DNA from: Escherichia coli
GTDB taxonomy: Bacteria > Pseudomonadota > Gammaproteobacteria > Enterobacterales > Enterobacteriaceae
Assembly (NCBI RefSeq): GCF_030013595.1
Contig: NZ_CP122768.1
Direction: 5' to 3' (one strand)
Length of the DNA: 64,000 nt
The notes below the pieces were generated by a model that saw only the letters and a list, made by a program, of their open reading frames with translations, was not told the DNA's origin and ran no database searches. Below, piece by piece: positions 22,562-63,954 of the stretch. The translations under genes and the position numbers were made by a program. Within the stretch, counting starts at the first letter, position 1; every line of letters begins with the position of its first letter.

Positions 22562-22637
22562 GCCCGGATAGCTCAGTCGGTAGAGCAGGGGATTGAAAAT
22601 CCCCGTGTCCTTGGTTCGATTCCGAGTCCGGGCACCA
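22562..22637 (+). tRNA. pheU: tRNA-Phe (anticodon GAA)
   Basis: 76-nt sequence GCCCGGATAGCTCAGTCGGTAGAGCAGGGGATTGAAAATCCCC...GGGCACCA with GAA anticodon loop and encoded CCA; whether this is the pheU or the identical pheV copy is inferred from the flanking yjdC/cadC context. Confidence 0.97.
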
Positions 22638-24974: not shown

Positions 24975-25194
24975 GCAAGCACCTTAAAATCACCATCATA
25001 CACTAAATCAGTAAGTTGGCAGCATTACCGAAATCCCCATCCTTTAGGGCAGTGAGAATGTCAATAATAGCAGACCACATCATGAGTCATTTTGACCGAC
25101 ACATGCAGAAGCAGAGGCTCCATCCCATTTTATACCTACCCTATAACACTTAGAAAAACAACATGTTAAAAATGTCTATTGGAAACAATTTTAT

Positions 25195-48973: not shown

Positions 48974-50199
48974 CACGTCGCGTAGTGATTACAGGAATGG
49001 GCGGCGTGACTGCCTTTGGTGAAAACTGGCAGGACGTTTCTGCACGCTTACTGGCGTATGAAAATGCGGTGCGCAAAATGCCGGAGTGGCAGGTCTACGA
49101 TGGGCTGCACACCCTGCTTGGCGCGCCTGTTGATGATTTCACGCTACCGGAGCACTACACCCGCAAGCGTATCCGTGCGATGGGCCGCGTGTCGCAAATG
49201 TCGACCCGTGCCAGCGAGCTGGCGTTAGAGCAGGCAGGGTTGATTGGCGATCCGATATTAACCAGCGGCGAAACGGGCATTGCGTACGGTTCATCGACCG
49301 GCAGTACCGGTCCGGTGAGCGAATTTGCCACCATGCTGACTGAAAAGCACACGAACAACATCACTGGCACCACCTATGTGCAGATGATGCCGCACACCAC
49401 CGCTGTTAATACTGGCCTCTTTTTCGGCCTGCGCGGGCGGGTGATCCCAACCTCCAGCGCCTGTACCTCCGGCAGCCAGGCGATCGGTTATGCGTGGGAA
49501 GCCATTCGCCACGGTTATCAAACGGTGATGGTTGCCGGTGGTGCCGAAGAGTTATGCCCTTCAGAAGCAGCAGTGTTTGATACCCTTTTTGCCACCAGCC
49601 AGCACAATGATGCGCCGAAAACCACACCTTCACCGTTCGATGAAAACCGCGACGGACTGGTGATTGGTGAAGGCGCAGGTACGCTCATTCTCGAAGAACT
49701 GGAGCATGCCAAAGCGCGCGGCGCGACCATTTACGGTGAAATCGTCGGCTTTGCGACGAACTGCGACGCGGCACATATTACCCAGCCGCAGCGCGAAACC
49801 ATGCAGTATTGTATGGAGCAATCGCTGAAAATCGCAGGGTTAAGCGCACAAGATATCGGCTATATTTCAGCGCATGGTACGGCGACCGATCGCGGTGATA
49901 TGGCAGAAAGTCTGGCGACAGCAACCATTTACGGTGATAATGTGCCGCTCTCCTCGCTGAAAAGTTATTTTGGTCATACGCTTGGTGCCTGTGGCGCGCT
50001 CGAAGCCTGGATGAGTCTGCAAATGATGCGCGAAGGTTGGTTTGCGCCTACGCTAAACCTGAATAAACCAGACCCGAATTGTGGCGCGCTGGATTACATC
50101 ATGCATGAAGCCCGCAGGGTTGATTGTGAGTTTTTGCAGAGTAACAACTTTGCCTTTGGCGGCATTAATACATCCATCATTATTAAGCGCTGGCCCTGA
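48970..50199 (+). CDS. apeR: beta-ketoacyl-ACP synthase (FabB/FabF-like)
   Basis: 409 aa with TSSACTSGSQAIG active-site Cys, AHGTATD and GHTLGACG histidines; ATGA overlap with apeQ. Confidence 0.85.
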   Translation: MTRRVVITGMGGVTAFGENWQDVSARLLAYENAVRKMPEWQVYDGLHTLLGAPVDDFTLPEHYTRKRIRAMGRVSQMSTRASELALEQAGLIGDPILTSGETGIAYGSSTGSTGPVSEFATMLTEKHTNNITGTTYVQMMPHTTAVNTGLFFGLRGRVIPTSSACTSGSQAIGYAWEAIRHGYQTVMVAGGAEELCPSEAAVFDTLFATSQHNDAPKTTPSPFDENRDGLVIGEGAGTLILEELEHAKARGATIYGEIVGFATNCDAAHITQPQRETMQYCMEQSLKIAGLSAQDIGYISAHGTATDRGDMAESLATATIYGDNVPLSSLKSYFGHTLGACGALEAWMSLQMMREGWFAPTLNLNKPDPNCGALDYIMHEARRVDCEFLQSNNFAFGGINTSIIIKRWP

Positions 50200-51038
50200 G
50201 TTATACAACCACATGGACATCCCATGTGGTGATTCTTCAAAAAATCTGAATCAATGAATATGAACCTCAAATTCTCTTACGCATACTGAAGAGCATTCCG
50301 TATAACGATTCAGCAGACAAAACTTTATCAGTCCACACGAATCAACGGATGCACAGATGACACGCCCGGTTATCACCGGGCAATGGTTGCCATAACGGGT
50401 AACATAAGGGACTGAACAGTTGTCTTTAGCGCAACGAACTGATCTAACGTACCTGAACGGACAACCTGAAAACAGTCTTTCACCCTGCATTGTCCGCCAG
50501 TGCTTATTACCAACCACGTCTGTTGCAGTAAAGTAATCAGTTGCGAACATTATTTATCAATCGTGACGCTGGCTCGCGCATGGCAGAAAAGGTCCTGACT
50601 GAGCAACAACAGGCATCGTACTGTTGCTGCTCCATGTTGTTTATATGAACGCATCCCGTTTGCAAGGCTTCCGTGTTTTTGACGTTGACGGTAGATTGCT
50701 GCTCTATATCCTTATTGCAGCCGGTGCTGCGGGCCTCAATGAGATTCGCTGACTCTCGCCTTATTCACGCAACGAGCTTTAAGCTCAGAAAAACATCCAA
50801 GTTTGGTGAGTCACAGTCTTACCTGTCGTTGTCATCAATATAGGAATGGATAATCTGGAGAGCGATACTGCAGGCTGATATTGCGGTTTTGCGACAAGTT
50901 TTTAGCATCCGCTTCTACGCCAAATACCTGAAGTAGGAATGGATGCGTTAGCAGCATACATCCGGAACTGCGCGGGGAATAGCCGGAAACGGCTATCCCT
51001 ACCACAATAGCTAACTTTGTAATAGCGCTCTTTTAGGC

Positions 51039-52070
51039 TCATGTACTCTGACGTAATTCTATCTGGTAGTTGAATTGCACGATACGCGACTCTTCTGATT
51101 CATCATGATTATTATTCAATAGTCCAATCAGTAACTTACCTGTCTCTATCCCCATTTTTTTGTAGTCAATACGGATGGATGTCAAAGTTGGGTGTGTTTG
51201 ATCGCAATTGTCTGAACCGTCAAGACAAGCTACAGCGATATTTCCAGGGATTTTTAACAAACGCCGCTGGCACTCAAACATTATACCCAGCGCAATCTCT
51301 TCGTGGCTGCAAATCACAGCATCCAGCTCTGGTTGTCGCAGTAATATCTCGTTTAATGCGTAACGCCCCAATTGCAGACTTGCGGCATCCGGCATGGTGA
51401 TAACAAGATCAGTGTTCTGGTAATGGCTCAGCATTGCTTTATGCCAGCCGTTCAGTTGCTGACGTTGCAGGCGGTTGTCCATATGCGCACCGATAAATCC
51501 GATATTCTTATAACCCTGCTCCAGCAGATGTTCGGTCAGTTTATGTGATGCTTCAAAAAATGCTGTTTCGATGGTAATTTGAGCCGGACTGAAAGGGGAA
51601 CCGATAACGTTAATGGTAGGTATATTTGTTTTCTCGAGTATCTGGTGAGTTTTATCAGCCAACTGAGAACCAAAAATAACTAACGCCGCCGGGTTGCCTT
51701 GAAGAAGCGTCATCAGAATTTCAGCTTCTTTGAGCTGATTATACTCATGACACCCAAGCAGTAGCTGGAATTCATTTTTATTAAGCACCTGCTGTAATGA
51801 CTGCATAAAGCGGGAGCTGGCTTTATCTGTCAGGGAAGGAACCAGTACGGCGACTGTATGACTGTGACCAGATGCAAGGGCGCCAGCAGTTCTGTTGGGA
51901 ATATAACCCAACTCTTCTACGGCCTGTTCTATCTTTTCCCTCAGCTTGTCAGAAACCTGTTCCGGTGTTCTCAGCGCGCGGGAAACGGTCATAGTTCCGA
52001 CACCTGCAAAGTTAGCGACCTCCTGCAGCGTCACCCGTCCGGTACCACGGCGCTTACGTGTTTTTTCCAT
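51039..52070 (-). CDS. LacI-family transcriptional regulator
   Basis: N-terminal HTH VTLQEVANFAGVGTMTVSRAL and periplasmic-binding-protein-like effector domain; divergent from the PTS genes. Confidence 0.85.
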   Translation of the reverse strand: MEKTRKRRGTGRVTLQEVANFAGVGTMTVSRALRTPEQVSDKLREKIEQAVEELGYIPNRTAGALASGHSHTVAVLVPSLTDKASSRFMQSLQQVLNKNEFQLLLGCHEYNQLKEAEILMTLLQGNPAALVIFGSQLADKTHQILEKTNIPTINVIGSPFSPAQITIETAFFEASHKLTEHLLEQGYKNIGFIGAHMDNRLQRQQLNGWHKAMLSHYQNTDLVITMPDAASLQLGRYALNEILLRQPELDAVICSHEEIALGIMFECQRRLLKIPGNIAVACLDGSDNCDQTHPTLTSIRIDYKKMGIETGKLLIGLLNNNHDESEESRIVQFNYQIELRQST

Positions 52071-52340
52071 TTCGACTCCATGGATAATTACAACCAGCTG
52101 TTTTCATTACTTTTATTTCACCATTACTCTTTCCAGTTTTTGCCCACGGTAGCAAATATCCTGTTGCATTGTATATGCAGGAACCGAATATAGCCAAAGC
52201 ATGGCGGCAGAGAAATGATAGCGCTATCACAAAGATTGGTAGCGTTATCAGATAGCGCTATCAAATGCGACAATCATCACATTAATTAATGCGTAAAATA
52301 TCTACTCTCCTGTTAATTATCATCGGGAGTTATCAGTAGC

Positions 52341-52784
52341 ATGTTAAAAAATCTATTAAATACAGAGGTCGTTCAGGTCGTGGAACAGGTCAAAGACTGG
52401 CGGGAAGCCGTGGCGATTTCATGCCGACCGTTGATTGAAAACGGCTCTATCGAACCGCGTTATGTTGATGCGATCTATCACTCGCACGACACTATCGGTC
52501 CGTACTATGTGGTTGGCCCTGGTATTGCGATGCCTCATGCGCGCCCGGAAGAGGGGGCTAACAAGCTGTCATTAGCACTGACCCTGATCCCTTCAGGTGT
52601 GAATTTTGATGCCGATGAAAACGATCCAGTGAAATTACTGATTGTGCTGGCTGCAACCGACAGTACCAGCCACATTGAAGCGATTTCTCAACTCGCCAAG
52701 TTATTCGATAACGAAAAAGACATACAGGCCATTTTGACGGCCAAAACGACGCAGGACATTTTGTCTGTTATTGCGCGCTATTAA
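52341..52784 (+). CDS. PTS EIIA component (PTS_EIIA_2 type)
   Basis: 147 aa, phosphorylatable His in GIAMPHARP. Confidence 0.8.
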   Translation: MLKNLLNTEVVQVVEQVKDWREAVAISCRPLIENGSIEPRYVDAIYHSHDTIGPYYVVGPGIAMPHARPEEGANKLSLALTLIPSGVNFDADENDPVKLLIVLAATDSTSHIEAISQLAKLFDNEKDIQAILTAKTTQDILSVIARY

Positions 52785-52799
52785 TCCAGAGGAACATTT

Positions 52800-53087
52800 A
52801 TGAAAATTACAGTGGTTTGCGGTAACGGCTTAGGCACCAGCCTGATGATGGAAATGAGCATTAAAAGCATTTTGAAGGATTTGTCCGTCAGCGCTGATGT
52901 TGATCACGTCGACCTGGGCTCCGCGAAAGGGACGCCGAGTGATATCTATGTCGGCACCAAAGACATTGCCGAGCAGTTAGCCGCGCAGTCTGTCGCAGGC
53001 AAAATCGTCGCACTGGAAAATATGATTGATAAGAAAGCCATGAGAGAACGTTTGTCCGTGGTATTAACCGAATTAGGCGCACTGTAA
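52800..53087 (+). CDS. PTS EIIB component (ascorbate/SgaB-like)
   Basis: 95 aa, active-site Cys in VVCGNGLGTS. Confidence 0.8.
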   Translation: MKITVVCGNGLGTSLMMEMSIKSILKDLSVSADVDHVDLGSAKGTPSDIYVGTKDIAEQLAAQSVAGKIVALENMIDKKAMRERLSVVLTELGAL

Positions 53088-53099
53088 GCTGGGGGCGAT

Positions 53100-54356
53100 A
53101 TGGATTTCTTTCGTTTTTTGATGAGCGATGTACTTTCCGAACCCGCAGTGCTGGTCGGTTTAATCGCCCTGATTGGCCTGATTGCACAGAAAAAACCGGT
53201 AACCGAATGCATTAAAGGTACCGTCAAGACCATTATGGGGTTTGTGATTTTAGGCGCAGGGGCGGGTTTAGTTGTGTCGTCACTGGGTGACTTCGCAAAC
53301 ATTTTCCAGCATGCCTTTGGTATTCAGGGTGTAGTGCCGAACAATGAAGCCATTGTTTCCGTAGCGCAGAAAAGCTTCGGGAAAGAAATGGCGATGATTA
53401 TGTTCTTTGCGATGGTTATCAACATTATGATTGCCCGTTTCACACCGTGGAAATTTATCTTCCTGACCGGTCATCACACGTTGTTTATGTCGATGATGGT
53501 AGCGGTAATTCTGGCAACAGCAGGCATGACCGGCATTACGCTTATAGCCGTTGGCTCTTTGGTTGTTGGCGTGGCAATGGTCTTTTTCCCGGCTATTGCG
53601 CATCCGTACATGAAGAAAGTGACCGGTTCTGATGACGTTGCCATCGGCCACTTCTCAACATTATCTTATGTATTGGCCGGTTTCATCGGCAGCAAGTTTG
53701 GTAATAAAGAGCACTCGACTGAAGACATGAATGTGCCGAAAAGTCTGCTGTTCTTGCGCGACACGCCGGTTGCTATCTCTTTTACCATGAGCATAATTTT
53801 CCTGGTGACGTGCCTGTTTGCGGGTGCAGATGCGGTGAAAGAGCTTAGCGGTGGTAAAAACTGGTTCATGTTCTCTATCATGCAATCCATTACCTTCGCA
53901 GCTGGCGTGTACATCATTCTGCAGGGTGTGCGCATGGTGATTGCGGAGATTGTCCCGGCATTCAAAGGTATTTCAGACAAGCTGGTTCCGAATGCCAGAC
54001 CTGCTCTCGATTGCCCGGTCGTCTTCCCTTACGCACCTAACGCTGTACTGGTTGGTTTCCTGAGTAGCTTTGCTGCAGGTTTAATCGGTATGTTCACGTT
54101 GTATCTGCTGAACATGATCGTGATTATTCCTGGTGTGGTGCCGCACTTCTTCGTAGGTGCAGCTGCAGGGGTATTCGGTAATGCAACGGGTGGACGTCGT
54201 GGTGCGATTTTGGGTGCCTTCGCTCAGGGCTTGCTTATTACCTTCCTGCCAGTATTCTTATTGCCGGTGCTGGGTGATATTGGTTTTGCTAACACCACCT
54301 TCAGTGATGCTGACTTTGGCGCACTGGGTATTTTGTTAGGGATTATCGTTCGCTAA
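53100..54356 (+). CDS. PTS EIIC permease (ascorbate/UlaA-SgaT family)
   Basis: 418 aa polytopic membrane protein directly after EIIB. Confidence 0.8.
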   Translation: MDFFRFLMSDVLSEPAVLVGLIALIGLIAQKKPVTECIKGTVKTIMGFVILGAGAGLVVSSLGDFANIFQHAFGIQGVVPNNEAIVSVAQKSFGKEMAMIMFFAMVINIMIARFTPWKFIFLTGHHTLFMSMMVAVILATAGMTGITLIAVGSLVVGVAMVFFPAIAHPYMKKVTGSDDVAIGHFSTLSYVLAGFIGSKFGNKEHSTEDMNVPKSLLFLRDTPVAISFTMSIIFLVTCLFAGADAVKELSGGKNWFMFSIMQSITFAAGVYIILQGVRMVIAEIVPAFKGISDKLVPNARPALDCPVVFPYAPNAVLVGFLSSFAAGLIGMFTLYLLNMIVIIPGVVPHFFVGAAAGVFGNATGGRRGAILGAFAQGLLITFLPVFLLPVLGDIGFANTTFSDADFGALGILLGIIVR

Positions 54357-54571
54357 TATTTTGATGACATTAATATCCTCCAGGATTTCAGGAACGTGGA
54401 GGATATTAATTCCTCTTATTTTCTCCATTTTTCTTTCTTCCAGTCAGGACTGCATCCGATTAATCGTAAGCGCTCCGAGAAGTACGTAGCGTAAGGATTA
54501 TTTTACAGCTGAGAAGTTTCAGTGCAGCAGTTCATGCACACGGTTCGACGGCTAGTCATTGATCTTCATAA

Positions 54572-54856
54572 TTACCTCGCGTAAAAAACGGGGTAAGGCC
54601 GCTCATCCAGCGTCATCTCCACAGGTAATAATTCAACGCCAATGCCAGAAGAGTTCGTTACCGGAAGACGCCGTGATATACGCCCTTTGATCAGCGAGAG
54701 CCTGAGCCATTTGAACAGAAGATTATCATTGATATCATGCTCCCGGGCAATACGGGCAACAGAACCCCTTGGTTGTAAAGCCAGTTTAACCATTTGAAGT
54801 TTAAACTCATTTGAAAATGACCTGCGGGGTTCAACTGATAATGTTTTTTGTTCCAT
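54572..54856 (-). mobile_element. IS3-family transposase OrfA-like fragment
   Basis: 94-aa ORF with HTH transposase-8 pattern (FSNEFKLQMVKLALQPRGSVARIAREHDINDNLLFKWLR) but no adjacent OrfB or inverted repeats identified. Confidence 0.5.
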
Positions 54857-55277
54857 AACAGGTGTCCACTAGTTGAAAAGGTGGGTACCTATGTTACCAA
54901 TACTGGCTTAATGGCTACATACAGCAGTCGGTTTACGCATACACTTTTATAGTGCACTCCGGCCTCATGAATATAACGGTGGATTACCGCCGAACGAATC
55001 GGAAAATAGATACTGGAAAAAAACTGAAATTGTGACCAGTTTTTGTTGACCACTACAAATAAATAAAAGAGTTGCAGTGCTTGCTCGGTAAGAAAACAAT
55101 GGAGGTTAAGCTCCTCAAAGAAGCTGTGGAGTACACCACTCTACAGTAGTTGCGCAAATTTGGAGTGGACGATAATGTGATCGTCTATAAGGGCAACGCT
55201 ATCATAGTCTTGTCCTGGCGGGTAAAAAAACGCGCTTACCTTAACGATAAGCGCGCCGCTGTTCAGGCCTTGAGTGG

Positions 55278-56291
55278 TTATTCAATTCCTGTGGTGACTG
55301 TAAAAGTGCGCGTTTGCTGCGGTGCAACCTGAATCAGCGTGCCATTACGTTGCGCGGCAAGATACCCCTCAGGCCGACAGGTTGCAGGTAATGCAAAGGC
55401 GGCTACCTGTTGCTCTCCGTTATAAAGGATCCAGCGTGTCACATAATTTAGTTCAGCACTGTAGAAACGAGTAACAAACGTAGTGCCATCGGGAGAGATC
55501 ATGCGAAACTCTGGCTGATCTGTATAAGCGTCCAGTTTGTCTGCAAAGAAGACAATTTCTGGATCATAAAATTCCGGTTGACTCAGCGTCGACAGAGAGG
55601 CTTCTCCCTGCATAATCCGTTGATTAAACGCCAGCCACTGAGCGGTGGGATTAACATGCGAAGGCACTGATTCACGCAATCTTAATATTTCGTCCGGGAT
55701 ATTCTGGCTGAATGTAGCATTTGGTATATATGCATAATTCATGTGGCACATATATTGTAGTGGCATATCTACAGAAGCCAGATTGGTTACGGCCATCTTA
55801 ATATCGAACAGTGTAGAGGATTTGTGAAGGACCACTGTTGGCTGAGCCAGATAATGATGACCGAAACCCATTACATACTCGTAACGCCCGTTAAGGCGTA
55901 ACATATCTCCGTCTAATTCCAGCCATGCTTCATCCATCGCGGCACAGGCCATTTCACCGTGTAGCAGATGAGTATCTTCCACAGATGGGCAGCCATTAGC
56001 CAGCAAACCTGAATGAAAAGCAAAACAGCCATAGGTCTCTATCACCTCTGTCGCCGGTTTAGGCTGGCGAAACATATTGCACATGGTGAGGCCGTGTCCA
56101 TCAAATTGCGCATCCCAAATCATCTGCCCCATCCAGGGAAGAATAATCAAATGTCCACGACTGTTTGCAATTTTAAGCCCCTCGACACCGCTGTCATATC
56201 GAAAAGACGTGACAGTAAAATCACTATTTTCCAGCAAGATACGAGGTTTCTCGCCAAAAAGCGCCCGCCACAAATTAATACGCGTACTCAT
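55278..56291 (-). CDS. deoX: DeoX-like protein of unknown function (third gene of deoKPX-type module)
   Basis: 337-aa ORF downstream of the permease gene; assignment by operon context and recollection of the deoQKPX organisation; fold not verified. Confidence 0.45.
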   Translation of the reverse strand: MSTRINLWRALFGEKPRILLENSDFTVTSFRYDSGVEGLKIANSRGHLIILPWMGQMIWDAQFDGHGLTMCNMFRQPKPATEVIETYGCFAFHSGLLANGCPSVEDTHLLHGEMACAAMDEAWLELDGDMLRLNGRYEYVMGFGHHYLAQPTVVLHKSSTLFDIKMAVTNLASVDMPLQYMCHMNYAYIPNATFSQNIPDEILRLRESVPSHVNPTAQWLAFNQRIMQGEASLSTLSQPEFYDPEIVFFADKLDAYTDQPEFRMISPDGTTFVTRFYSAELNYVTRWILYNGEQQVAAFALPATCRPEGYLAAQRNGTLIQVAPQQTRTFTVTTGIE

Positions 56292-57646: not shown

Positions 57647-58540
57647 TTATTCGTTTAAGGTTAAAAATTCATTAAATTGTTCAATACTCGGATAAGATGA
57701 TTGCGTACCTTTCCCTGTGACGCTGAAAGCGGCAAAGAGAGCGGCTTTTTTCAAAGCGGCTTCAACATCACCGCTTTGAACATAATAATGGGAAAAGCAA
57801 CCAATAAATGCGTCACCAGCGCCACTAGTATCAACAGCATTTACTTTGAATGCAGGAACATGGACTTCCTGATCGCGGGTCATCCATAATGCGCCTTTTT
57901 CGCTCATGGTAACAATAATATTGTTCAGCCCTTTATCAACTAACGAACGTGCGGCCAAACGAATATGATCATAAGTATCAACCGACATACCGGTTAATAT
58001 TTCCAGTTCTGTTTCATTCGGGATAAAGAAATCACATTTGCAGGCATAAGACATATCTAACTCACGCAATGCCGGAGCCGGATTTAATAACACTTCAATA
58101 CCATTTTTCTTACCAAACTCAATCGCGTGGTAAACTGTTTCCAGTTGAACTTCCAGTTGTAAAACGATCAATTTGCATTTTTTCAGATCTTCTGCAGCTC
58201 GATCGATATCTTCCGGGGAAAGAAATTTATTCGCTCCCTTAATTATTAATATACTATTGCTCGAGTTGGCATTAACAAAGATCGGTGCAACACCACTGCT
58301 GGTACAGGGGACTTTCTCAACATAAGTGGTATTAATTCCCCATGATTCGAGATTACGAATAGTATTATCCGCAAAAATATCATCACCTACTTTAGTCAGC
58401 ATCAGGACTTTTGAATTCAATTTAGCCGCCGCCACCGCTTGATTAGCACCTTTCCCACCACATCCGATTTTGAAGGCAGGTGCTTCCAGAGTTTCTCCTT
58501 CTTTAGGCATCTGATTAGTGTAAGTAATGAGATCCACCAT
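57647..58540 (-). CDS. deoK: ribokinase-family sugar kinase, putative deoxyribokinase; 5' end cut by IS1
   Basis: Ribokinase motifs GGKGANQAVAAA and DTSGAGDAF; upstream in-frame codons ...VIGSN run straight into the IS1 terminal repeat, so the native start codon and promoter are missing. Confidence 0.65.
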   Translation of the reverse strand: MVDLITYTNQMPKEGETLEAPAFKIGCGGKGANQAVAAAKLNSKVLMLTKVGDDIFADNTIRNLESWGINTTYVEKVPCTSSGVAPIFVNANSSNSILIIKGANKFLSPEDIDRAAEDLKKCKLIVLQLEVQLETVYHAIEFGKKNGIEVLLNPAPALRELDMSYACKCDFFIPNETELEILTGMSVDTYDHIRLAARSLVDKGLNNIIVTMSEKGALWMTRDQEVHVPAFKVNAVDTSGAGDAFIGCFSHYYVQSGDVEAALKKAALFAAFSVTGKGTQSSYPSIEQFNEFLTLNE

Positions 58541-58572
58541 ATTGGAACCAATAACTGGGTAATGACTCCAAC

Positions 58573-59076
58573 TTACTGATAGTGTTTTATGTTCAGATAA
58601 TGCCCGATGACCTTGTCATGCAGCTCCACCGATTTTGAGAACGACAGTGACTTCCGTCCCAGCCTTGCCAGATGTTGTCTCAGATTCAGGTTATGCCGCT
58701 CAATGCGCTGAGTATAACGCTTGCTGATAACGTGCAGCTTTCCCTTCAGGCGTGATTCATACAGCGGCCAGCCATCCGTCATCCATACCACGACCTCAAA
58801 GGCCGACAGCAGGCTCAGAAGACGCTCCAGTGTGGCCAGAGTGCGTTCACCGAAGACGTGCGCCACAACCGTCCTCCGCATCCTGTCATACGCGTAAAAC
58901 AGCCAGCGCTGACGTGATTTAGCACCGACGTAGCCCCACTGTTCGTCCATTTCAGCGCAGACAATCACATCACTGCCCGGTTGTATGCGCGAGGTTACCG
59001 ACTGCGGCCTGAGTTTTTTAAGTGGCGGAAAATCGTGTTGAGGCCAACGCCAATAATGCGTGCACTGGCGCGACAT
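58573..59076 (-). CDS. insB: IS1 InsB (expressed as InsAB' by frameshifting)
   Basis: 167-aa ORF overlapping insA in the -1 frame. Confidence 0.85.
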
Positions 59077-59270
59077 CCGACGCCATTCATGGCCATATCA
59101 ATGATTTTCTGGTGCGTACCGGGCTGAGAGGCGGCGTAAGTGAACTGTAGTTGCCATGTTTTACGGCAGTGAGAGCAGAGATAGCGCTGATGTCCGGCGG
59201 TGCTTTTGCCGTTACGCACCACCCCGTCAGTAGCTGAACAGGAGGGACAGCTGATAGAAACAGAAGCCAC
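58995..59270 (-). CDS. insA: IS1 InsA
   Basis: 91-aa [23 protein letters not shown]... Confidence 0.9.
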
Positions 59271-59325
59271 TGGAGCACCTCAAAAACACCATCATACACT
59301 AAATCAGTAAGTTGGCAGCATCACC

Positions 59326-60027
59326 GACAATGCAGATGGTTCAACCATGCTGGATAAACGTTATGTCATCACTAACGGTAATCAGCTGGCGATTCAAAAT
59401 GATTTACTGGAGAGTTTATCAAAAGCGTTAAACCAACCGTGGCCACAACGAATGCAGGAGATGCTCCAGCAAATTTTGCCTCATCGTGGTGCGTTATTAA
59501 CTAATTTTTATCAGGCACATGATTATTTACTGCATGGCGATGATAAATCATTGAACCGTGCCAGTGAATTATTAGGTGAGATTGTTCAATCATCCCCAGA
59601 ATTTACCTACGCGAGAGCAGAAAAAGCATTAGTTGATATCGTGCGCCATTCTCAACATCCTTTAGATGAAAAACAATTAGCAGCACTGAACACAGACATA
59701 GATAACATTGTTACACTACCGGAATTGAATAACCTGTCCATTATATATCAAATAAAAGCGGTCAGTGCTCTGGTAAAAGGTAAAACAGATGAGTCTTACC
59801 AGGCGATAAATACTGGCATTGATCTTGAAATGTCCTGGCTAAATTATGTGTTGCTTGGCAAGGTTTATGAAATGAAGGGGATGAACCGGGAAGCAGCTGA
59901 TGCATATCTCACCGCCTTTAATTTACGCCCAGGGGCAAACACCCTTTACTGGATTGAAAATGGTATATTCCAGACTTCTGTTCCTTATGTTGTACCTTAT
60001 CTCGACAAATTTCTCGCTTCAGAATAA
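59326..60027 (+). pseudogene. cadC: cadC 3' fragment (C-terminal periplasmic sensor domain only), truncated by IS1
   Basis: Reading frame continues from the IS1 boundary and ends ...NTLYWIENGIFQTSVPYVVPYLDKFLASE, the CadC C-terminus; the N-terminal DNA-binding and TM regions are absent. Confidence 0.85.
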
Positions 60028-60392: not shown

Positions 60393-61727
60393 ATGAGTTC
60401 TGCCAAGAAGATCGGGCTATTTGCCTGTACCGGTGTTGTTGCCGGTAATATGATGGGGAGCGGTATTGCATTATTACCTGCGAACCTAGCAAGTATCGGT
60501 GGTATTGCTATCTGGGGTTGGATTATCTCTATTATTGGTGCAATGTCGCTGGCGTATGTATATGCCCGACTGGCAACAAAAAACCCGCAACAAGGTGGCC
60601 CAATTGCTTATGCCGGAGAAATTTCCCCTGCATTTGGTTTTCAGACAGGTGTTCTTTATTACCATGCTAACTGGATTGGTAACCTGGCGATTGGTATTAC
60701 CGCTGTATCTTATCTTTCCACCTTCTTCCCAGTATTAAATGATCCTGTTCCGGCGGGTATCGCCTGTATTGCTATCGTCTGGGTATTTACCTTTGTAAAT
60801 ATGCTCGGCGGTACCTGGGTAAGCCGTTTAACCACTATTGGTCTGGTGCTGGTTCTTATTCCTGTGGTAATGACAGCTATTGTTGGCTGGCATTGGTTTG
60901 ATGCTGCGACTTATGCTGCTAACTGGAATACTGCGGATACCACCGATGGTCATGCGATCATTAAAAGTATTCTGCTCTGCCTGTGGGCCTTCGTGGGTGT
61001 TGAATCCGCAGCTGTAAGTACTGGTATGGTTAAAAACCCGAAACGTACCGTTCCGCTGGCAACCATGCTGGGTACTGGTTTAGCAGGTATTGTTTATATC
61101 GCTGCGACTCAGGTGCTTTCCGGTATGTATCCGTCTTCTGTAATGGCAGCTTCCGGTGCTCCGTTTGCAATCAGTGCTTCAACTATCCTCGGTAACTGGG
61201 CTGCGCCGCTGGTTTCTGCATTCACCGCCTTTGCGTGCCTGACCTCTCTGGGCTCCTGGATGATGTTGGTAGGCCAGGCAGGTGTACGTGCCGCTAACGA
61301 CGGTAACTTCCCGAAAGTTTATGGTGAAGTCGACAGCAACGGTATTCCGAAAAAAGGTCTGCTGCTGGCTGCAGTGAAAATGACTGCCCTGATGATCCTC
61401 ATCACTCTGATGAACTCTGCCGGTGGTAAAGCATCTGACCTGTTCGGTGAACTGACCGGTATCGCAGTACTGCTGACTATGCTGCCGTACTTCTACTCTT
61501 GCGTTGACCTGATTCGTTTTGAAGGCGTTAACATCCGCAACTTTGTCAGCCTGATCTGCTCTGTACTGGGTTGCGTGTTCTGCTTCATCGCGCTGATGGG
61601 CGCAAGCTCCTTCGAGCTGGCAGGTACCTTCATCGTCAGCCTGATTATCCTGATGTTCTACGCTCGCAAAATGCACGAGCGCCAGAGCCACTCAATGGAT
61701 AACCACACAGCGTCTAACGCACATTAA
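60393..61727 (+). CDS. cadB: lysine/cadaverine antiporter CadB
   Basis: 444 aa APC-family transporter upstream of cadA. Confidence 0.95.
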   Translation: MSSAKKIGLFACTGVVAGNMMGSGIALLPANLASIGGIAIWGWIISIIGAMSLAYVYARLATKNPQQGGPIAYAGEISPAFGFQTGVLYYHANWIGNLAIGITAVSYLSTFFPVLNDPVPAGIACIAIVWVFTFVNMLGGTWVSRLTTIGLVLVLIPVVMTAIVGWHWFDAATYAANWNTADTTDGHAIIKSILLCLWAFVGVESAAVSTGMVKNPKRTVPLATMLGTGLAGIVYIAATQVLSGMYPSSVMAASGAPFAISASTILGNWAAPLVSAFTAFACLTSLGSWMMLVGQAGVRAANDGNFPKVYGEVDSNGIPKKGLLLAAVKMTALMILITLMNSAGGKASDLFGELTGIAVLLTMLPYFYSCVDLIRFEGVNIRNFVSLICSVLGCVFCFIALMGASSFELAGTFIVSLIILMFYARKMHERQSHSMDNHTASNAH

Positions 61728-61742
61728 TTAAAAGTATTTTCC

Positions 61743-61790
61743 GAGGCTCCTCCTTTCATTTTGTCCCATGTGTTGGGAGGGGCCTTTTTT
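61743..61790 (+). terminator. putative attenuating terminator between cadB and cadA
   Basis: Imperfect GC-rich inverted repeat ggctcctcc...gggaggggcc followed by tttttt. Confidence 0.45.
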
Positions 61791-61806
61791 ACCTGGAGAT
61801 ATGACT

Positions 61807-63954
61807 ATGAACGTTATTGCAATATTGAATCACATGGGGGTTTATTTTAAAGAAGAACCCATCCGTGAACTTCATCGCGCGCTTGAACGTCTGAACTTCC
61901 AGATTGTTTACCCGAACGACCGTGACGACTTATTAAAACTGATCGAAAACAATGCGCGTCTGTGCGGCGTTATTTTTGACTGGGATAAATATAATCTCGA
62001 GCTGTGCGAAGAAATTAGCAAAATGAACGAGAACCTGCCGTTGTACGCGTTCGCTAATACGTATTCCACTCTCGATGTAAGCCTGAATGACCTGCGTTTA
62101 CAGATTAGCTTCTTTGAATATGCGCTGGGTGCTGCTGAAGATATTGCTAACAAGATCAAGCAGACCACTGACGAATATATCAACACTATTCTGCCTCCGC
62201 TGACCAAAGCACTGTTTAAATATGTTCGTGAAGGTAAATATACTTTCTGTACTCCTGGTCACATGGGCGGTACTGCATTCCAGAAAAGCCCGGTAGGTAG
62301 CCTGTTCTATGATTTCTTTGGTCCGAACACCATGAAATCTGATATTTCCATTTCAGTATCTGAACTGGGTTCTCTGCTGGATCACAGTGGTCCACACAAA
62401 GAAGCAGAACAGTATATCGCTCGCGTCTTTAACGCAGACCGCAGCTACATGGTGACCAACGGTACTTCCACTGCGAACAAAATTGTTGGTATGTACTCTG
62501 CTCCAGCAGGCAGCACCATTCTGATTGACCGTAACTGCCACAAATCGCTGACCCACCTGATGATGATGAGCGATGTTACGCCAATCTATTTCCGCCCGAC
62601 CCGTAACGCTTACGGTATTCTTGGTGGTATCCCACAGAGTGAATTCCAGCACGCTACCATTGCTAAGCGCGTGAAAGAAACACCAAACGCAACCTGGCCG
62701 GTACATGCTGTAATTACTAACTCTACCTATGATGGTCTGCTGTACAACACCGACTTCATCAAGAAAACACTGGATGTGAAATCCATCCACTTTGACTCCG
62801 CGTGGGTGCCTTACACCAACTTCTCACCGATTTACGAAGGTAAATGCGGTATGAGCGGTGGCCGTGTAGAAGGGAAAGTGATTTACGAAACCCAGTCTAC
62901 TCACAAACTGCTGGCGGCGTTCTCTCAGGCTTCCATGATCCACGTTAAAGGTGACGTAAACGAAGAAACCTTTAACGAAGCCTACATGATGCACACCACC
63001 ACTTCTCCGCACTACGGTATCGTGGCGTCCACTGAAACCGCTGCGGCGATGATGAAAGGCAATGCAGGTAAGCGTCTGATCAACGGTTCCATTGAACGTG
63101 CGATCAAATTCCGTAAAGAGATCAAACGTCTGAGAACGGAATCTGATGGCTGGTTCTTTGATGTATGGCAGCCGGATCATATCGATACGACTGAATGCTG
63201 GCCGCTGCGTTCTGACAGCACCTGGCACGGCTTCAAAAACATCGATAACGAGCACATGTATCTTGACCCGATCAAAGTCACCCTGCTGACTCCGGGGATG
63301 GAAAAAGACGGCACCATGAGCGACTTTGGTATTCCGGCCAGCATCGTGGCGAAATACCTCGACGAACATGGCATCGTTGTTGAGAAAACCGGTCCGTATA
63401 ACCTGCTGTTCCTGTTCAGCATCGGTATCGATAAGACCAAAGCACTGAGCCTGCTGCGTGCTCTGACAGACTTCAAACGTGCGTTCGATCTGAACCTGCG
63501 TGTGAAAAACATGCTGCCGTCTCTGTATCGTGAAGATCCTGAATTCTATGAAAACATGCGTATTCAGGAACTGGCTCAGAATATCCACAAACTGATTGTT
63601 CACCACAATCTGCCGGATCTGATGTATCGCGCATTTGAAGTTCTGCCGACCATGGTAATGACTCCGTATGCTGCGTTCCAGAAAGAGCTGCACGGTATGA
63701 CCGAAGAAGTTTACCTCGACGAAATGGTAGGTCGTATTAACGCCAATATGATCCTTCCGTATCCGCCGGGAGTTCCTCTGGTAATGCCGGGTGAAATGAT
63801 CACCGAAGAAAGCCGTCCGGTTCTGGAGTTCCTGCAGATGCTGTGTGAAATCGGCGCTCACTATCCGGGCTTTGAAACCGATATTCACGGTGCATACCGT
63901 CAGGCTGATGGCCGCTATACCGTTAAGGTATTGAAAGAAGAAAGCAAAAAATAA
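61807..63954 (+). CDS. cadA: inducible lysine decarboxylase CadA
   Basis: Start at MNVIAILNHMGVYFKEEP (715 aa); PLP-binding region with STHKLL present. Confidence 0.97.
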   Translation: MNVIAILNHMGVYFKEEPIRELHRALERLNFQIVYPNDRDDLLKLIENNARLCGVIFDWDKYNLELCEEISKMNENLPLYAFANTYSTLDVSLNDLRLQISFFEYALGAAEDIANKIKQTTDEYINTILPPLTKALFKYVREGKYTFCTPGHMGGTAFQKSPVGSLFYDFFGPNTMKSDISISVSELGSLLDHSGPHKEAEQYIARVFNADRSYMVTNGTSTANKIVGMYSAPAGSTILIDRNCHKSLTHLMMMSDVTPIYFRPTRNAYGILGGIPQSEFQHATIAKRVKETPNATWPVHAVITNSTYDGLLYNTDFIKKTLDVKSIHFDSAWVPYTNFSPIYEGKCGMSGGRVEGKVIYETQSTHKLLAAFSQASMIHVKGDVNEETFNEAYMMHTTTSPHYGIVASTETAAAMMKGNAGKRLINGSIERAIKFRKEIKRLRTESDGWFFDVWQPDHIDTTECWPLRSDSTWHGFKNIDNEHMYLDPIKVTLLTPGMEKDGTMSDFGIPASIVAKYLDEHGIVVEKTGPYNLLFLFSIGIDKTKALSLLRALTDFKRAFDLNLRVKNMLPSLYREDPEFYENMRIQELAQNIHKLIVHHNLPDLMYRAFEVLPTMVMTPYAAFQKELHGMTEEVYLDEMVGRINANMILPYPPGVPLVMPGEMITEESRPVLEFLQMLCEIGAHYPGFETDIHGAYRQADGRYTVKVLKEESKK

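Follow-up and report, generated by a model that had tools for sequence, protein, structure and literature searches.

The locus studied here, part of an analysed stretch of 64,000 nucleotides of Escherichia coli DNA (the window), consists of a LacI-type repressor gene that is divergent from the genes for EIIA, EIIB and EIIC of a PTS transporter. This arrangement, proposed in the initial annotation, is confirmed by the open reading frames and their Pfam domains, as is the absence of catabolic genes downstream: none follows EIIC. The EIIA gene (vpeA-type; 52341..52784, + strand) encodes a 147-aa protein matching PTS_EIIA_2 (PF00359) at 125.7 bits, with His66 read from the sequence in an AMPHAR motif. 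The 95-aa product of the EIIB gene (vpeB-type; 52800..53087, + strand) matches PTS_IIB (PF02302) at 49.3 bits; its Cys7 lies in VVCGNGLGTS, within the MKITVVCGNGLGTS motif, and is the cysteine that had been assigned earlier to CGNGLGTS. EIIC (vpeC-type; 53100..54356, + strand) is a 418-aa permease of the UlaA-type fold family that covers the EIIC-GAT profile (PF03611, 500.6 bits) over its full length, positions 1-394 of 394. Its score of 628 bits against NCBIfam NF006919 exceeds the cut-off of 380, its score of 592 bits against the UlaA equivalog NF009549 falls below the cut-off of 890, and it matches PDB 4rp8 (UlaA) at 175 bits. More distant EIIC relatives were retrieved by a search of a representative library, a word-indexed search having returned near-identical E. 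coli entries. By these profile matches the three proteins, called Vpe from here on, are a PTS EII complex of the L-ascorbate/galactitol family (TC 4.A.7-like) and, as members of that family, would phosphorylate their substrate.

Located 12 nt past the EIIC stop codon is a hairpin (54369..54410, + strand) detected by inverted-repeat search and RNA folding. A strong inverted repeat had been claimed at 54371..54409; it is present and extends over 54369-54410. The two 14-nt arms (54369-54382 and 54397-54410) are 100% complementary, stand 14 nt apart and are followed by a T-rich tract. Folded as RNA, the hairpin reaches -21.3 kcal/mol (z = -2.7), and 3 of 200 shuffled sequences fold as well. The stem is AT-rich, the loop is long (14 nt), the tail, TTCCTCTTATTTTCTCC, is an imperfect U tract, and the one hairpin picked out by a terminator scan was a shorter alternative at 54398-54416. 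To judge from its sequence, the hairpin is probably the transcription terminator of the three-gene operon; it lies outside the unit conserved across species and inside the E. coli vpe block. Two other RNA elements, a Moco riboswitch and AfaR, had sub-threshold Rfam matches and were not accepted.

What is this locus? By its gene order and the accounts in two citing papers, it is very probably the vpe island locus already described in pathogenic E. coli (strain AL511). Martinez-Jehanne et al. reportedly described vpe in 2012 as a regulator plus EIIA, EIIB and EIIC in extraintestinal pathogenic E. coli, and the mutant phenotype in that study is said to concern capsule-like surface material and virulence. 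The gene order in the window runs from a polyketide/aryl-polyene-type cluster through the four vpe ORFs and one transposase ORF to deoX-deoP-deoK(-deoQ)-ilvN'. Both citing papers give four vpe ORFs, then one transposase ORF, then four deoK ORFs (PMC6455142, PMC5382810), and the position of the four PTS-locus ORFs, immediately next to the deoK operon, agrees with their description of vpe on pheU/pheV islands. According to one of the two (PMC5382810), the vpe PTS locus adjoins the deoK operon and O104:H4 2009EL-2050 is a carrier; in the related O104:H4 2009EL-2071 the locus is 99.1% identical to that of the window. CFT073 also carries it, and a complete vpe locus is present in 935 of 5,426 complete E. 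coli genomes. The published locus and that of the window show no structural difference, although the island in the window is ended by an IS1 just past deoK and its upstream flank is the aryl-polyene-type cluster, where CFT073 has cdiBA. Mutants of vpe are reported to be attenuated in mice, as cited in PMC5023641 and in bioRxiv 10.1101/2020.08.12.249037, and this literature names no substrate. Searches of the literature with the gene names vpeA, vpeB and so forth matched only unrelated abbreviations.

The repressor gene (vpeR-type; 51039..52070, - strand) encodes a 343-aa protein of the LacI family, in a GntR/IdnR-like clade, with an N-terminal LacI HTH (PF00356, 69 bits) and an effector domain resembling periplasmic binding proteins (Peripla_BP_3/_1; PF13377, 88.5 bits). 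Its best NCBIfam matches, each below the equivalog cut-off, are Pseudomonas GntR (278.6 bits against 400), IdnR (207 against 500) and E. coli GntR (175 against 433). In the PDB it matches best the Vibrio effector domain 3d8u (231 bits), probably an orthologue, and 3h5o, which is named GntR. By these scores the repressor is a sister group of GntR/IdnR and not an orthologue. The GntR/IdnR/PtxS group, regulators of the gluconate, idonate and 2-ketogluconate regulons, thus supplies its best profile matches, but those regulators control a GntP-type permease and a kinase, whereas the Vpe repressor controls a PTS.

Three putative operators lie between the repressor and EIIA genes. The predicted O1 is a perfect palindrome, TGATAGCGCTATCA (52216..52229), and those related loci that have the regulator gene conserve it between that gene and EIIA. 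O2, TGGTAGCGTTATCA (52237..52250), and O3, AGATAGCGCTATCA (52250..52263), are likewise predicted and differ from O1 by two mismatches and one mismatch, respectively. Most loci of Enterobacterales and Vibrio have an equivalent of O2, likewise offset by +21, and that of O3, at +34, is conserved from Aeromonas to E. coli. Almost all related loci with a repressor gene possess two or three operators at these fixed offsets, and none of the eight loci that lack the gene has any (five Xenorhabdus, Fukatsuia, Serratia microhaemolytica and Yersinia pestis). The LacI regulation claimed in the initial annotation is well supported by this co-occurrence. Directly after O3 lies a candidate CRP-like site, TGCGAcaatcaTCACA (52266..52281), matching 9 of 10 core positions; cores with at least 9 of 10 matches were detected in 39 of 80 upstream regions (the window and 79 related loci), compared with 0.6% of shuffled sequences. 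Further sites of the regulon were sought in the window and about 1.6 Mb of related loci, yielding a handful with one or two mismatches, approximately the chance expectation, and the full-text literature held nothing relevant to the operator sequence itself. The operator core is that of P. aeruginosa GntR, TAGCGCT, a repressor whose effectors are gluconate and 6-phosphogluconate (PMC5902321).

With one genome per species, relatives of the module were collected from about 80 species besides E. coli. In these Enterobacterales, Vibrionaceae and Aeromonas, among them Buttiauxella, Yersinia, Proteus, Photorhabdus and Vibrio, EIIC is 83-99% identical, and the regulator, EIIA and EIIB are syntenic with it in all but a few loci. 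Buttiauxella contains the closest relatives of the E. coli module that we found. DNA homology to the window is limited by the two outer stop codons, that of the repressor and that of EIIC. Beyond them lie unrelated housekeeping genes that vary by genus, such as pta-ackA with yfcD-yfcE in Yersinia, Brenneria and Proteus, or yieH with phoU-pstB in Buttiauxella, and 49 of 80 loci have their own, non-homologous terminator-like hairpin directly after EIIC. EIIC has a dN/dS ratio of 0.01-0.02, EIIA and EIIB one of about 0.05. No enzyme genes are conserved beside the module in the 79 related loci examined outside E. coli, and no deoK-type genes adjoin it in the approximately 80 other species.

On the E. 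coli island the boundary with the deoK operon is marked by two IS scars. The ORF at 54572-54856 (- strand), taken initially for an IS3-like OrfA fragment beside the repeat, is instead a truncated tnpA of the IS66 family. It matches only NCBIfam models of the IS66 accessory protein TnpA; with no more than about 85 codons left, its score stays under the curated cut-off. DNA and profile matches assign 54601..54942 (- strand) to an IS66-family (IS682-like) remnant that comprises the left terminal repeat, ending at 54942, and tnpA codons 1 to about 85; its DNA shows 89.5% identity to the same parts of an IS66-family element of the IS682 type. The remnant is cut off at 54601, on its vpe-facing side. 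Since nothing beyond tnpA codon ~85 is left facing EIIC, the deletion ended at 54601, and a deletion between 54600 and the interior of an IS66-family element did occur. The second scar, at about 55053..55134 (+ strand), resembles the tail of an IS2 OrfA (...LLGKKTMEVKLLKEAVEY), which suggests the IS3 family, and flanks the deoK module, a separate unit, on the left. The vpe and deoK modules are convergent, with the two scars and a uhpA-flank remnant between them, and in the window the deoK operon, which has its own permease, is disrupted by IS1. Blastx and tblastx comparison of the E. coli flanks (50200-51040 and 54357-55290) with the neighbours of related loci revealed no gene remnants, Pfam searches of all small flank ORFs in the window gave nothing credible, and the flank searches did not find the source of the 237 bp from the EIIC stop to the IS scar or of the 770 bp past the repressor stop.

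Why does a complete transporter lack enzyme genes? The initial annotation offered two answers, that the enzymes were lost by IS-mediated deletion or that the pathway is encoded elsewhere. The second is favoured by the evidence, in that Vpe is most probably a self-contained four-gene module, horizontally acquired and transporter-only ancestrally, whose product is handled by enzymes elsewhere. From the limits of homology, the unrelated flanks, the conserved EIIC, the low dN/dS and the co-occurrence of operators and repressor, we therefore infer that the transporter-only arrangement is an ancestral and selected state. Synteny comparison finds homologues elsewhere that also consist of the transporter and its regulator and are functional, as judged from dN/dS (0.01-0.05) and from the reported attenuation of mutants; the initial annotation had named such loci as what would refute its reading. 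Genes such as ptsG and manXYZ, which belong to other PTS families and have known substrates, are like Vpe in that they encode uptake without linked enzymes. They can do without them because their phosphorylated product enters core metabolism as a substrate.

Could dedicated catabolic genes nevertheless have been removed from the E. coli lineage by an IS66-associated deletion, leaving an orphan transporter? The IS66 remnant has indeed lost its EIIC-facing side beyond tnpA codon ~85, with a deletion end at 54601, and among the nearest EIIC relatives outside the Vpe group, which share at most 53% identity, some are linked to genes for transketolase, SIS isomerase or transaldolase. However, not one of the 79 related loci outside E. 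coli has conserved enzyme genes, homology goes no further than the EIIC stop and the flanking genes vary from genus to genus. In addition, terminator-like hairpins follow EIIC in 49 of 80 loci, that of E. coli beginning 12 nt past the stop; no remnant of an enzyme gene or of any other was detected in the E. coli flanks; and selection on the transporter is strong. Loss by IS-mediated deletion is thus unsupported and already largely refuted, and we consider it extremely improbable. Hardly more credible is a partnership with the neighbouring genes, in which deoxyribose or a related pentose would enter through the PTS and be processed by the deoxyribose genes or DeoC. It is true that deoX-deoP-deoK-deoQ lies directly downstream in every examined E. 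coli locus with a complete vpe, but the modules are convergent and set apart by two IS scars and the uhpA-flank remnant, deoK is also present in E. coli without vpe, some 80 other species have the module without deoK-type genes beside it, and the deoK operon has a permease of its own and is itself disrupted by IS1 in the window. A coupling of vpe to deoK was rejected because the modules occur apart in other genomes. A catabolic pathway would also be dispensable if the EII complex sensed a compound and altered surface or virulence traits through the phosphorylation state of the PTS. The published mutant phenotype, in capsule-like surface material and virulence, fits such signalling, as does the absence of a reported substrate; yet a LacI-type repressor with operators and a CRP-like site is the classical architecture of catabolic uptake, the phosphorylation residues are intact and the substrate pocket is strictly conserved. 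We regard a signalling function as unlikely.

What, then, is transported? Among the closest known systems is UlaABC (SgaTBA), the L-ascorbate PTS of E. coli, whose EIIC (PF03611), EIIB (PF02302, N-terminal Cys) and EIIA (PF00359) are separate proteins as in Vpe. Vpe differs in having a LacI-type regulator in place of UlaR, which is of the DeoR type, and neither the window nor any of the 79 related loci outside E. coli has ulaG/ulaDEF genes next to the module. Vpe EIIC aligns with UlaA (structures 4RP8/4RP9) across the whole core and keeps His135, His194, Asp314 and Phe362. Nevertheless, six of the ten residues reported to contact ascorbate in UlaA (PMC6048161) are changed (T86N, Y87E, I136H, Q139F, Q195F and I358V), and all ten equivalent positions are invariant across 80 Vpe-type sequences. 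Of the earlier assignment to an ascorbate family, the fold and the family stand; ascorbate as the substrate was rejected as unlikely because of this pocket comparison, and the score against the UlaA equivalog points the same way. Residue and profile comparisons suggest that the database label of ascorbate transporter is probably wrong for Vpe.

Taken with the transporter-only module that we favour, these data are consistent with the following scheme. By family membership, phosphate would pass from PEP via EI and HPr to His66 of EIIA and on to Cys7 of EIIB, while EIIC, with its UlaA-type elevator fold, would import a carbohydrate and release it phosphorylated. Comparative evidence predicts that the repressor binds the divergent promoter region at its three 14-bp palindromes (TGATAGCGCTATCA); the substrate or its phosphate presumably frees it from them, and the CRP-like site beside the operators suggests catabolite control. 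Transcription of the operon would end at the hairpin 12 nt past EIIC, and the phosphorylated product would be handled by enzymes encoded elsewhere, most simply those of core metabolism. E. coli would have gained the 3.3-kb module horizontally, and the module would have been welded to a Salmonella-type deoK (deoxyribose) module through the IS66-/IS3-family scar junction. One tentative and rather doubtful candidate is a PTS that takes up an aldonic sugar acid, for instance gluconate, delivering 6-phosphogluconate to the Entner-Doudoroff and pentose-phosphate pathways. If true, it would account for enzyme genes that are never linked to the module, for a repressor that groups with the gluconate repressors and has a GntR-like operator core, and for a pocket unlike the ascorbate one together with the poorer gut colonisation of mutants. 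The lack of a reported growth phenotype would also be explained, as E. coli has several other gluconate permeases.

The vpe locus has already been published as a determinant of fitness and virulence in pathogenic E. coli. To this our analysis adds that the module is an ancient and very strongly conserved unit of many animal-associated Gammaproteobacteria, not a damaged island fragment, and that its regulation may be read from a conserved, predicted triple operator. The absence of enzyme genes would itself be informative, narrowing the substrate to compounds that existing metabolism can use once they are phosphate esters and so leaving a short list of candidates.

The window covers part of an E. 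coli/Shigella-type chromosome in which a tRNA-Phe gene (22562-22637) is the site of a genomic island holding an integrase, fec genes and an aryl-polyene/polyketide-type cluster (ending at 50199), then the vpe region and then the deoK genes. The four genes of the phosphotransferase (PTS) module reported in the initial annotation are present and intact with the expected domains: a LacI-family regulator (51039-52070, minus strand), EIIA (52341-52784), EIIB (52800-53087; Cys7 within VVCGNGLGTS) and EIIC (53100-54356). The reported inverted repeat is likewise genuine, with perfectly complementary 14-nt arms (54369-54382 and 54397-54410) that begin 12 nt past the EIIC stop codon and precede a T-rich stretch; its RNA has a folding energy of -21.3 kcal/mol (z = -2.7). 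Gene order is the same as in the published vpe PTS locus, which adjoins deoK and for which O104:H4 is cited as a carrier (PMC5382810). On synteny and the secondary accounts of vpe, the window locus is this already described locus. The passages on vpe in citing papers describe mutants attenuated in mouse models and give the transported carbohydrate as unknown (PMC5023641; bioRxiv 10.1101/2020.08.12.249037).

Of 5,426 complete E. coli genomes, 935 carry the locus with all four genes (98.6-100% identity), CFT073 and O104:H4 among them, and every full-locus genome inspected has the same IS scar downstream, followed by deoX-deoP-deoK-deoQ-ilvN'. About 414 further E. coli genomes have EIIC reduced to the last 932 bp (window 53479-54410), so the locus is also often destroyed. 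At one such stub (Ecol_542; L083, 6003-6878), EIIC adjoins what is left of a transposase and a sugar-acid-type cluster of another kind, with an IclR regulator, DHDPS-, UxaA- and PdxA-family genes and an MFS transporter.

The transposase fragment beside the inverted repeat had been read as an IS3 OrfA. It belongs instead to the IS66 family: at 54601-54942 the DNA shares 89.5% identity with an IS682-type element over the latter's left end and first ~85 tnpA codons, the encoded protein matches IS66 TnpA models only, and the window copy is truncated on its EIIC-facing side. Downstream, what remains of an IS2-like OrfA (its tail, ~55053-55134) and a segment similar to the uhpA 3' flank (55144-55274) form part of the deoK module's left border; other E. 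coli carry this module without the PTS genes. The AfaR small RNA family (RF02515) is weakly matched at 54839-55043 (plus strand), with 33 bits where the gathering score is 100, and the match was rejected as AfaR proper. Its AfaR-matching 5' half overlaps the left-end region of the IS66 remnant, which suggests that AfaR of afa-8 islands derived from the same kind of scar.

At the far side of the deoK module lies an IS1 copy (58558-59325), where the first 10 nt of deoK (57647-58557), its promoter, deoQ and the remainder of the island are gone. Beyond IS1 the sequence restarts within cadC, lacking the N-terminal part (3' part, 59347-60027), followed by cadB and cadA (60393-63954). With the deoK start lost and cadC truncated, the deoxyribose operon and the lysine-decarboxylase activator both look inactivated, as in Shigella and enteroinvasive E. 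coli. Window 40000-64000, at a coverage of at least 80%, was found in no complete E. coli genome of the collection. A second perfect IS1 terminal repeat (25007-25029, minus strand), close to the island integrase and fec region, indicates a further IS1 copy or remnant.

Did vpe once include catabolic enzymes? The initial annotation saw an orphan PTS whose enzymes had been lost by IS-mediated deletion or whose product feeds a pathway encoded elsewhere. A deletion did take most of the IS66 element, and nothing suggests that vpe-linked enzymes went with it. Scanning one genome per bacterial species, we found EIIC in ~80 species at 83-99% amino-acid identity, in genera including Buttiauxella, Yersinia, Brenneria, Proteus, Providencia, Photorhabdus, Xenorhabdus, Edwardsiella, Vibrio, Photobacterium, Grimontia and Aeromonas, with the regulator, EIIA and EIIB arranged as in the window in nearly all. 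DNA homology to the window extends from the regulator stop codon (~51031-51041) to the EIIC stop codon (~54355-54363). The neighbors are housekeeping genes that vary by genus: in Yersinia, Brenneria and Proteus the module lies between pta-ackA and yfcD-yfcE-yfcH; in Buttiauxella its neighbors are an adenine-permease-like gene, yieH and phoU-pstB; and in Photorhabdus and each Vibrio they are other, unrelated genes. In 49 of 80 loci, a non-homologous terminator-like hairpin of their own lies at most 120 nt past the EIIC stop, and the E. coli vpe flanks contain no remnant of the relatives' neighbor genes and no recognizable protein domain. The vpe genes are under strong selection, with dN/dS against Buttiauxella and Yersinia of 0.01-0.02 for EIIC and ~0.05 for EIIA and EIIB. 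Together these observations argue that the transporter-only layout is ancestral and maintained. The orphan-PTS observation is thus largely right, apart from its IS family label; loss of enzymes by deletion is unsupported, since the relatives are likewise transporter-only and under constraint, and a pathway encoded elsewhere is the best reading.

The same aryl-polyene-type cluster as in the window (50199-40859) lies convergent and directly after EIIC in a rabbit-gut Enterobacteriaceae metagenome-assembled genome (L015, 11890-21254) and at the repressor end in E. coli, so relative to this cluster the PTS module is inverted between the two genomes. In Yersinia pestis NCTC5923 (L026, 8653-11257), EIIC is the sole survivor, with an IS256-family-like transposase gene in place of the regulator, EIIA and EIIB; in other Yersinia species the module is complete and lies between pta and yfcD.

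The 270-bp divergent regulator-EIIA region contains three operator-like sites: TGATAGCGCTATCA (52216-52229), TGGTAGCGTTATCA (52237-52250) and AGATAGCGCTATCA (52250-52263). Nearly all related loci possessing the regulator have two or three of these sites at the same offsets (0, +21 and +34), and the 8 loci without it (five Xenorhabdus, Fukatsuia, Serratia microhaemolytica and Yersinia pestis) have none. That sites and regulator occur together is good comparative evidence for action of the regulator at these sites. Seven of these loci (Xenorhabdus L068, L074, L075, L077 and L078; Fukatsuia L071; S. microhaemolytica L080) keep EIIA, EIIB and EIIC with neither a LacI-type regulator gene nor operators, and the operon there is presumably constitutive or under different control. 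After the third site lies a CRP-like site, TGCGAcaatcaTCACA (52266-52281), whose core (at least 9 of 10 positions) recurs in 39 of 80 upstream regions versus 0.6% of shuffles. Just past the repressor stop codon, on the opposite strand and pointing into the repressor gene, is a sub-threshold molybdenum-cofactor riboswitch match (RF01055; 50887-51028, plus strand; 24.8 bits versus a gathering score of 36). Its conserved GGG...AGCCGGAAACGGCU...CCU hairpin fits well and its P1 stem is unformed; a former neighbor may have left it as a relic, or the match may be due to chance.

What does Vpe transport? The ascorbate permease UlaA is only a distant relative of Vpe EIIC (175 bits). Of its published ascorbate-contact residues (PMC6048161), ten could be aligned: four are kept (His135, His194, Asp314 and Phe362) and six changed (T86N, Y87E, I136H, Q139F, Q195F and I358V), and all ten equivalent positions are invariant across 80 Vpe-type sequences. 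Ascorbate is accordingly an unlikely substrate, and the clade would share a single fixed specificity. The next closest EIIC clusters (at most 53% identity) occur in varied contexts: with transketolase and SIS isomerases, with a transaldolase/FSA-type gene, with polyol dehydrogenases plus a DeoC-type aldolase and transketolase, or as another transporter-only set. Among profiles, the regulator scores best against Pseudomonas GntR, IdnR and E. coli GntR, each time below the equivalog cut-off. Its operator shares the core TAGCGCT with that of P. aeruginosa GntR, a repressor whose effectors are gluconate and 6-phosphogluconate (PMC5902321). Sugar acids of the gluconate type are attractive, if rather improbable, candidates. 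In Buttiauxella (L002-L008), yieH, named 6-phosphogluconate phosphatase by NCBIfam (420 bits), stands beside the repressor; the arrangement there (adenine-permease-like gene, yieH ... phoU) resembles normal synteny of the core genome and was set aside as support for gluconate. The most economical reading is that the phosphate ester of the substrate enters core metabolism directly. What is new here is comparative: a conserved four-gene unit, a triple operator, an apparently non-ascorbate pocket and a repressor of the gluconate-type clade.
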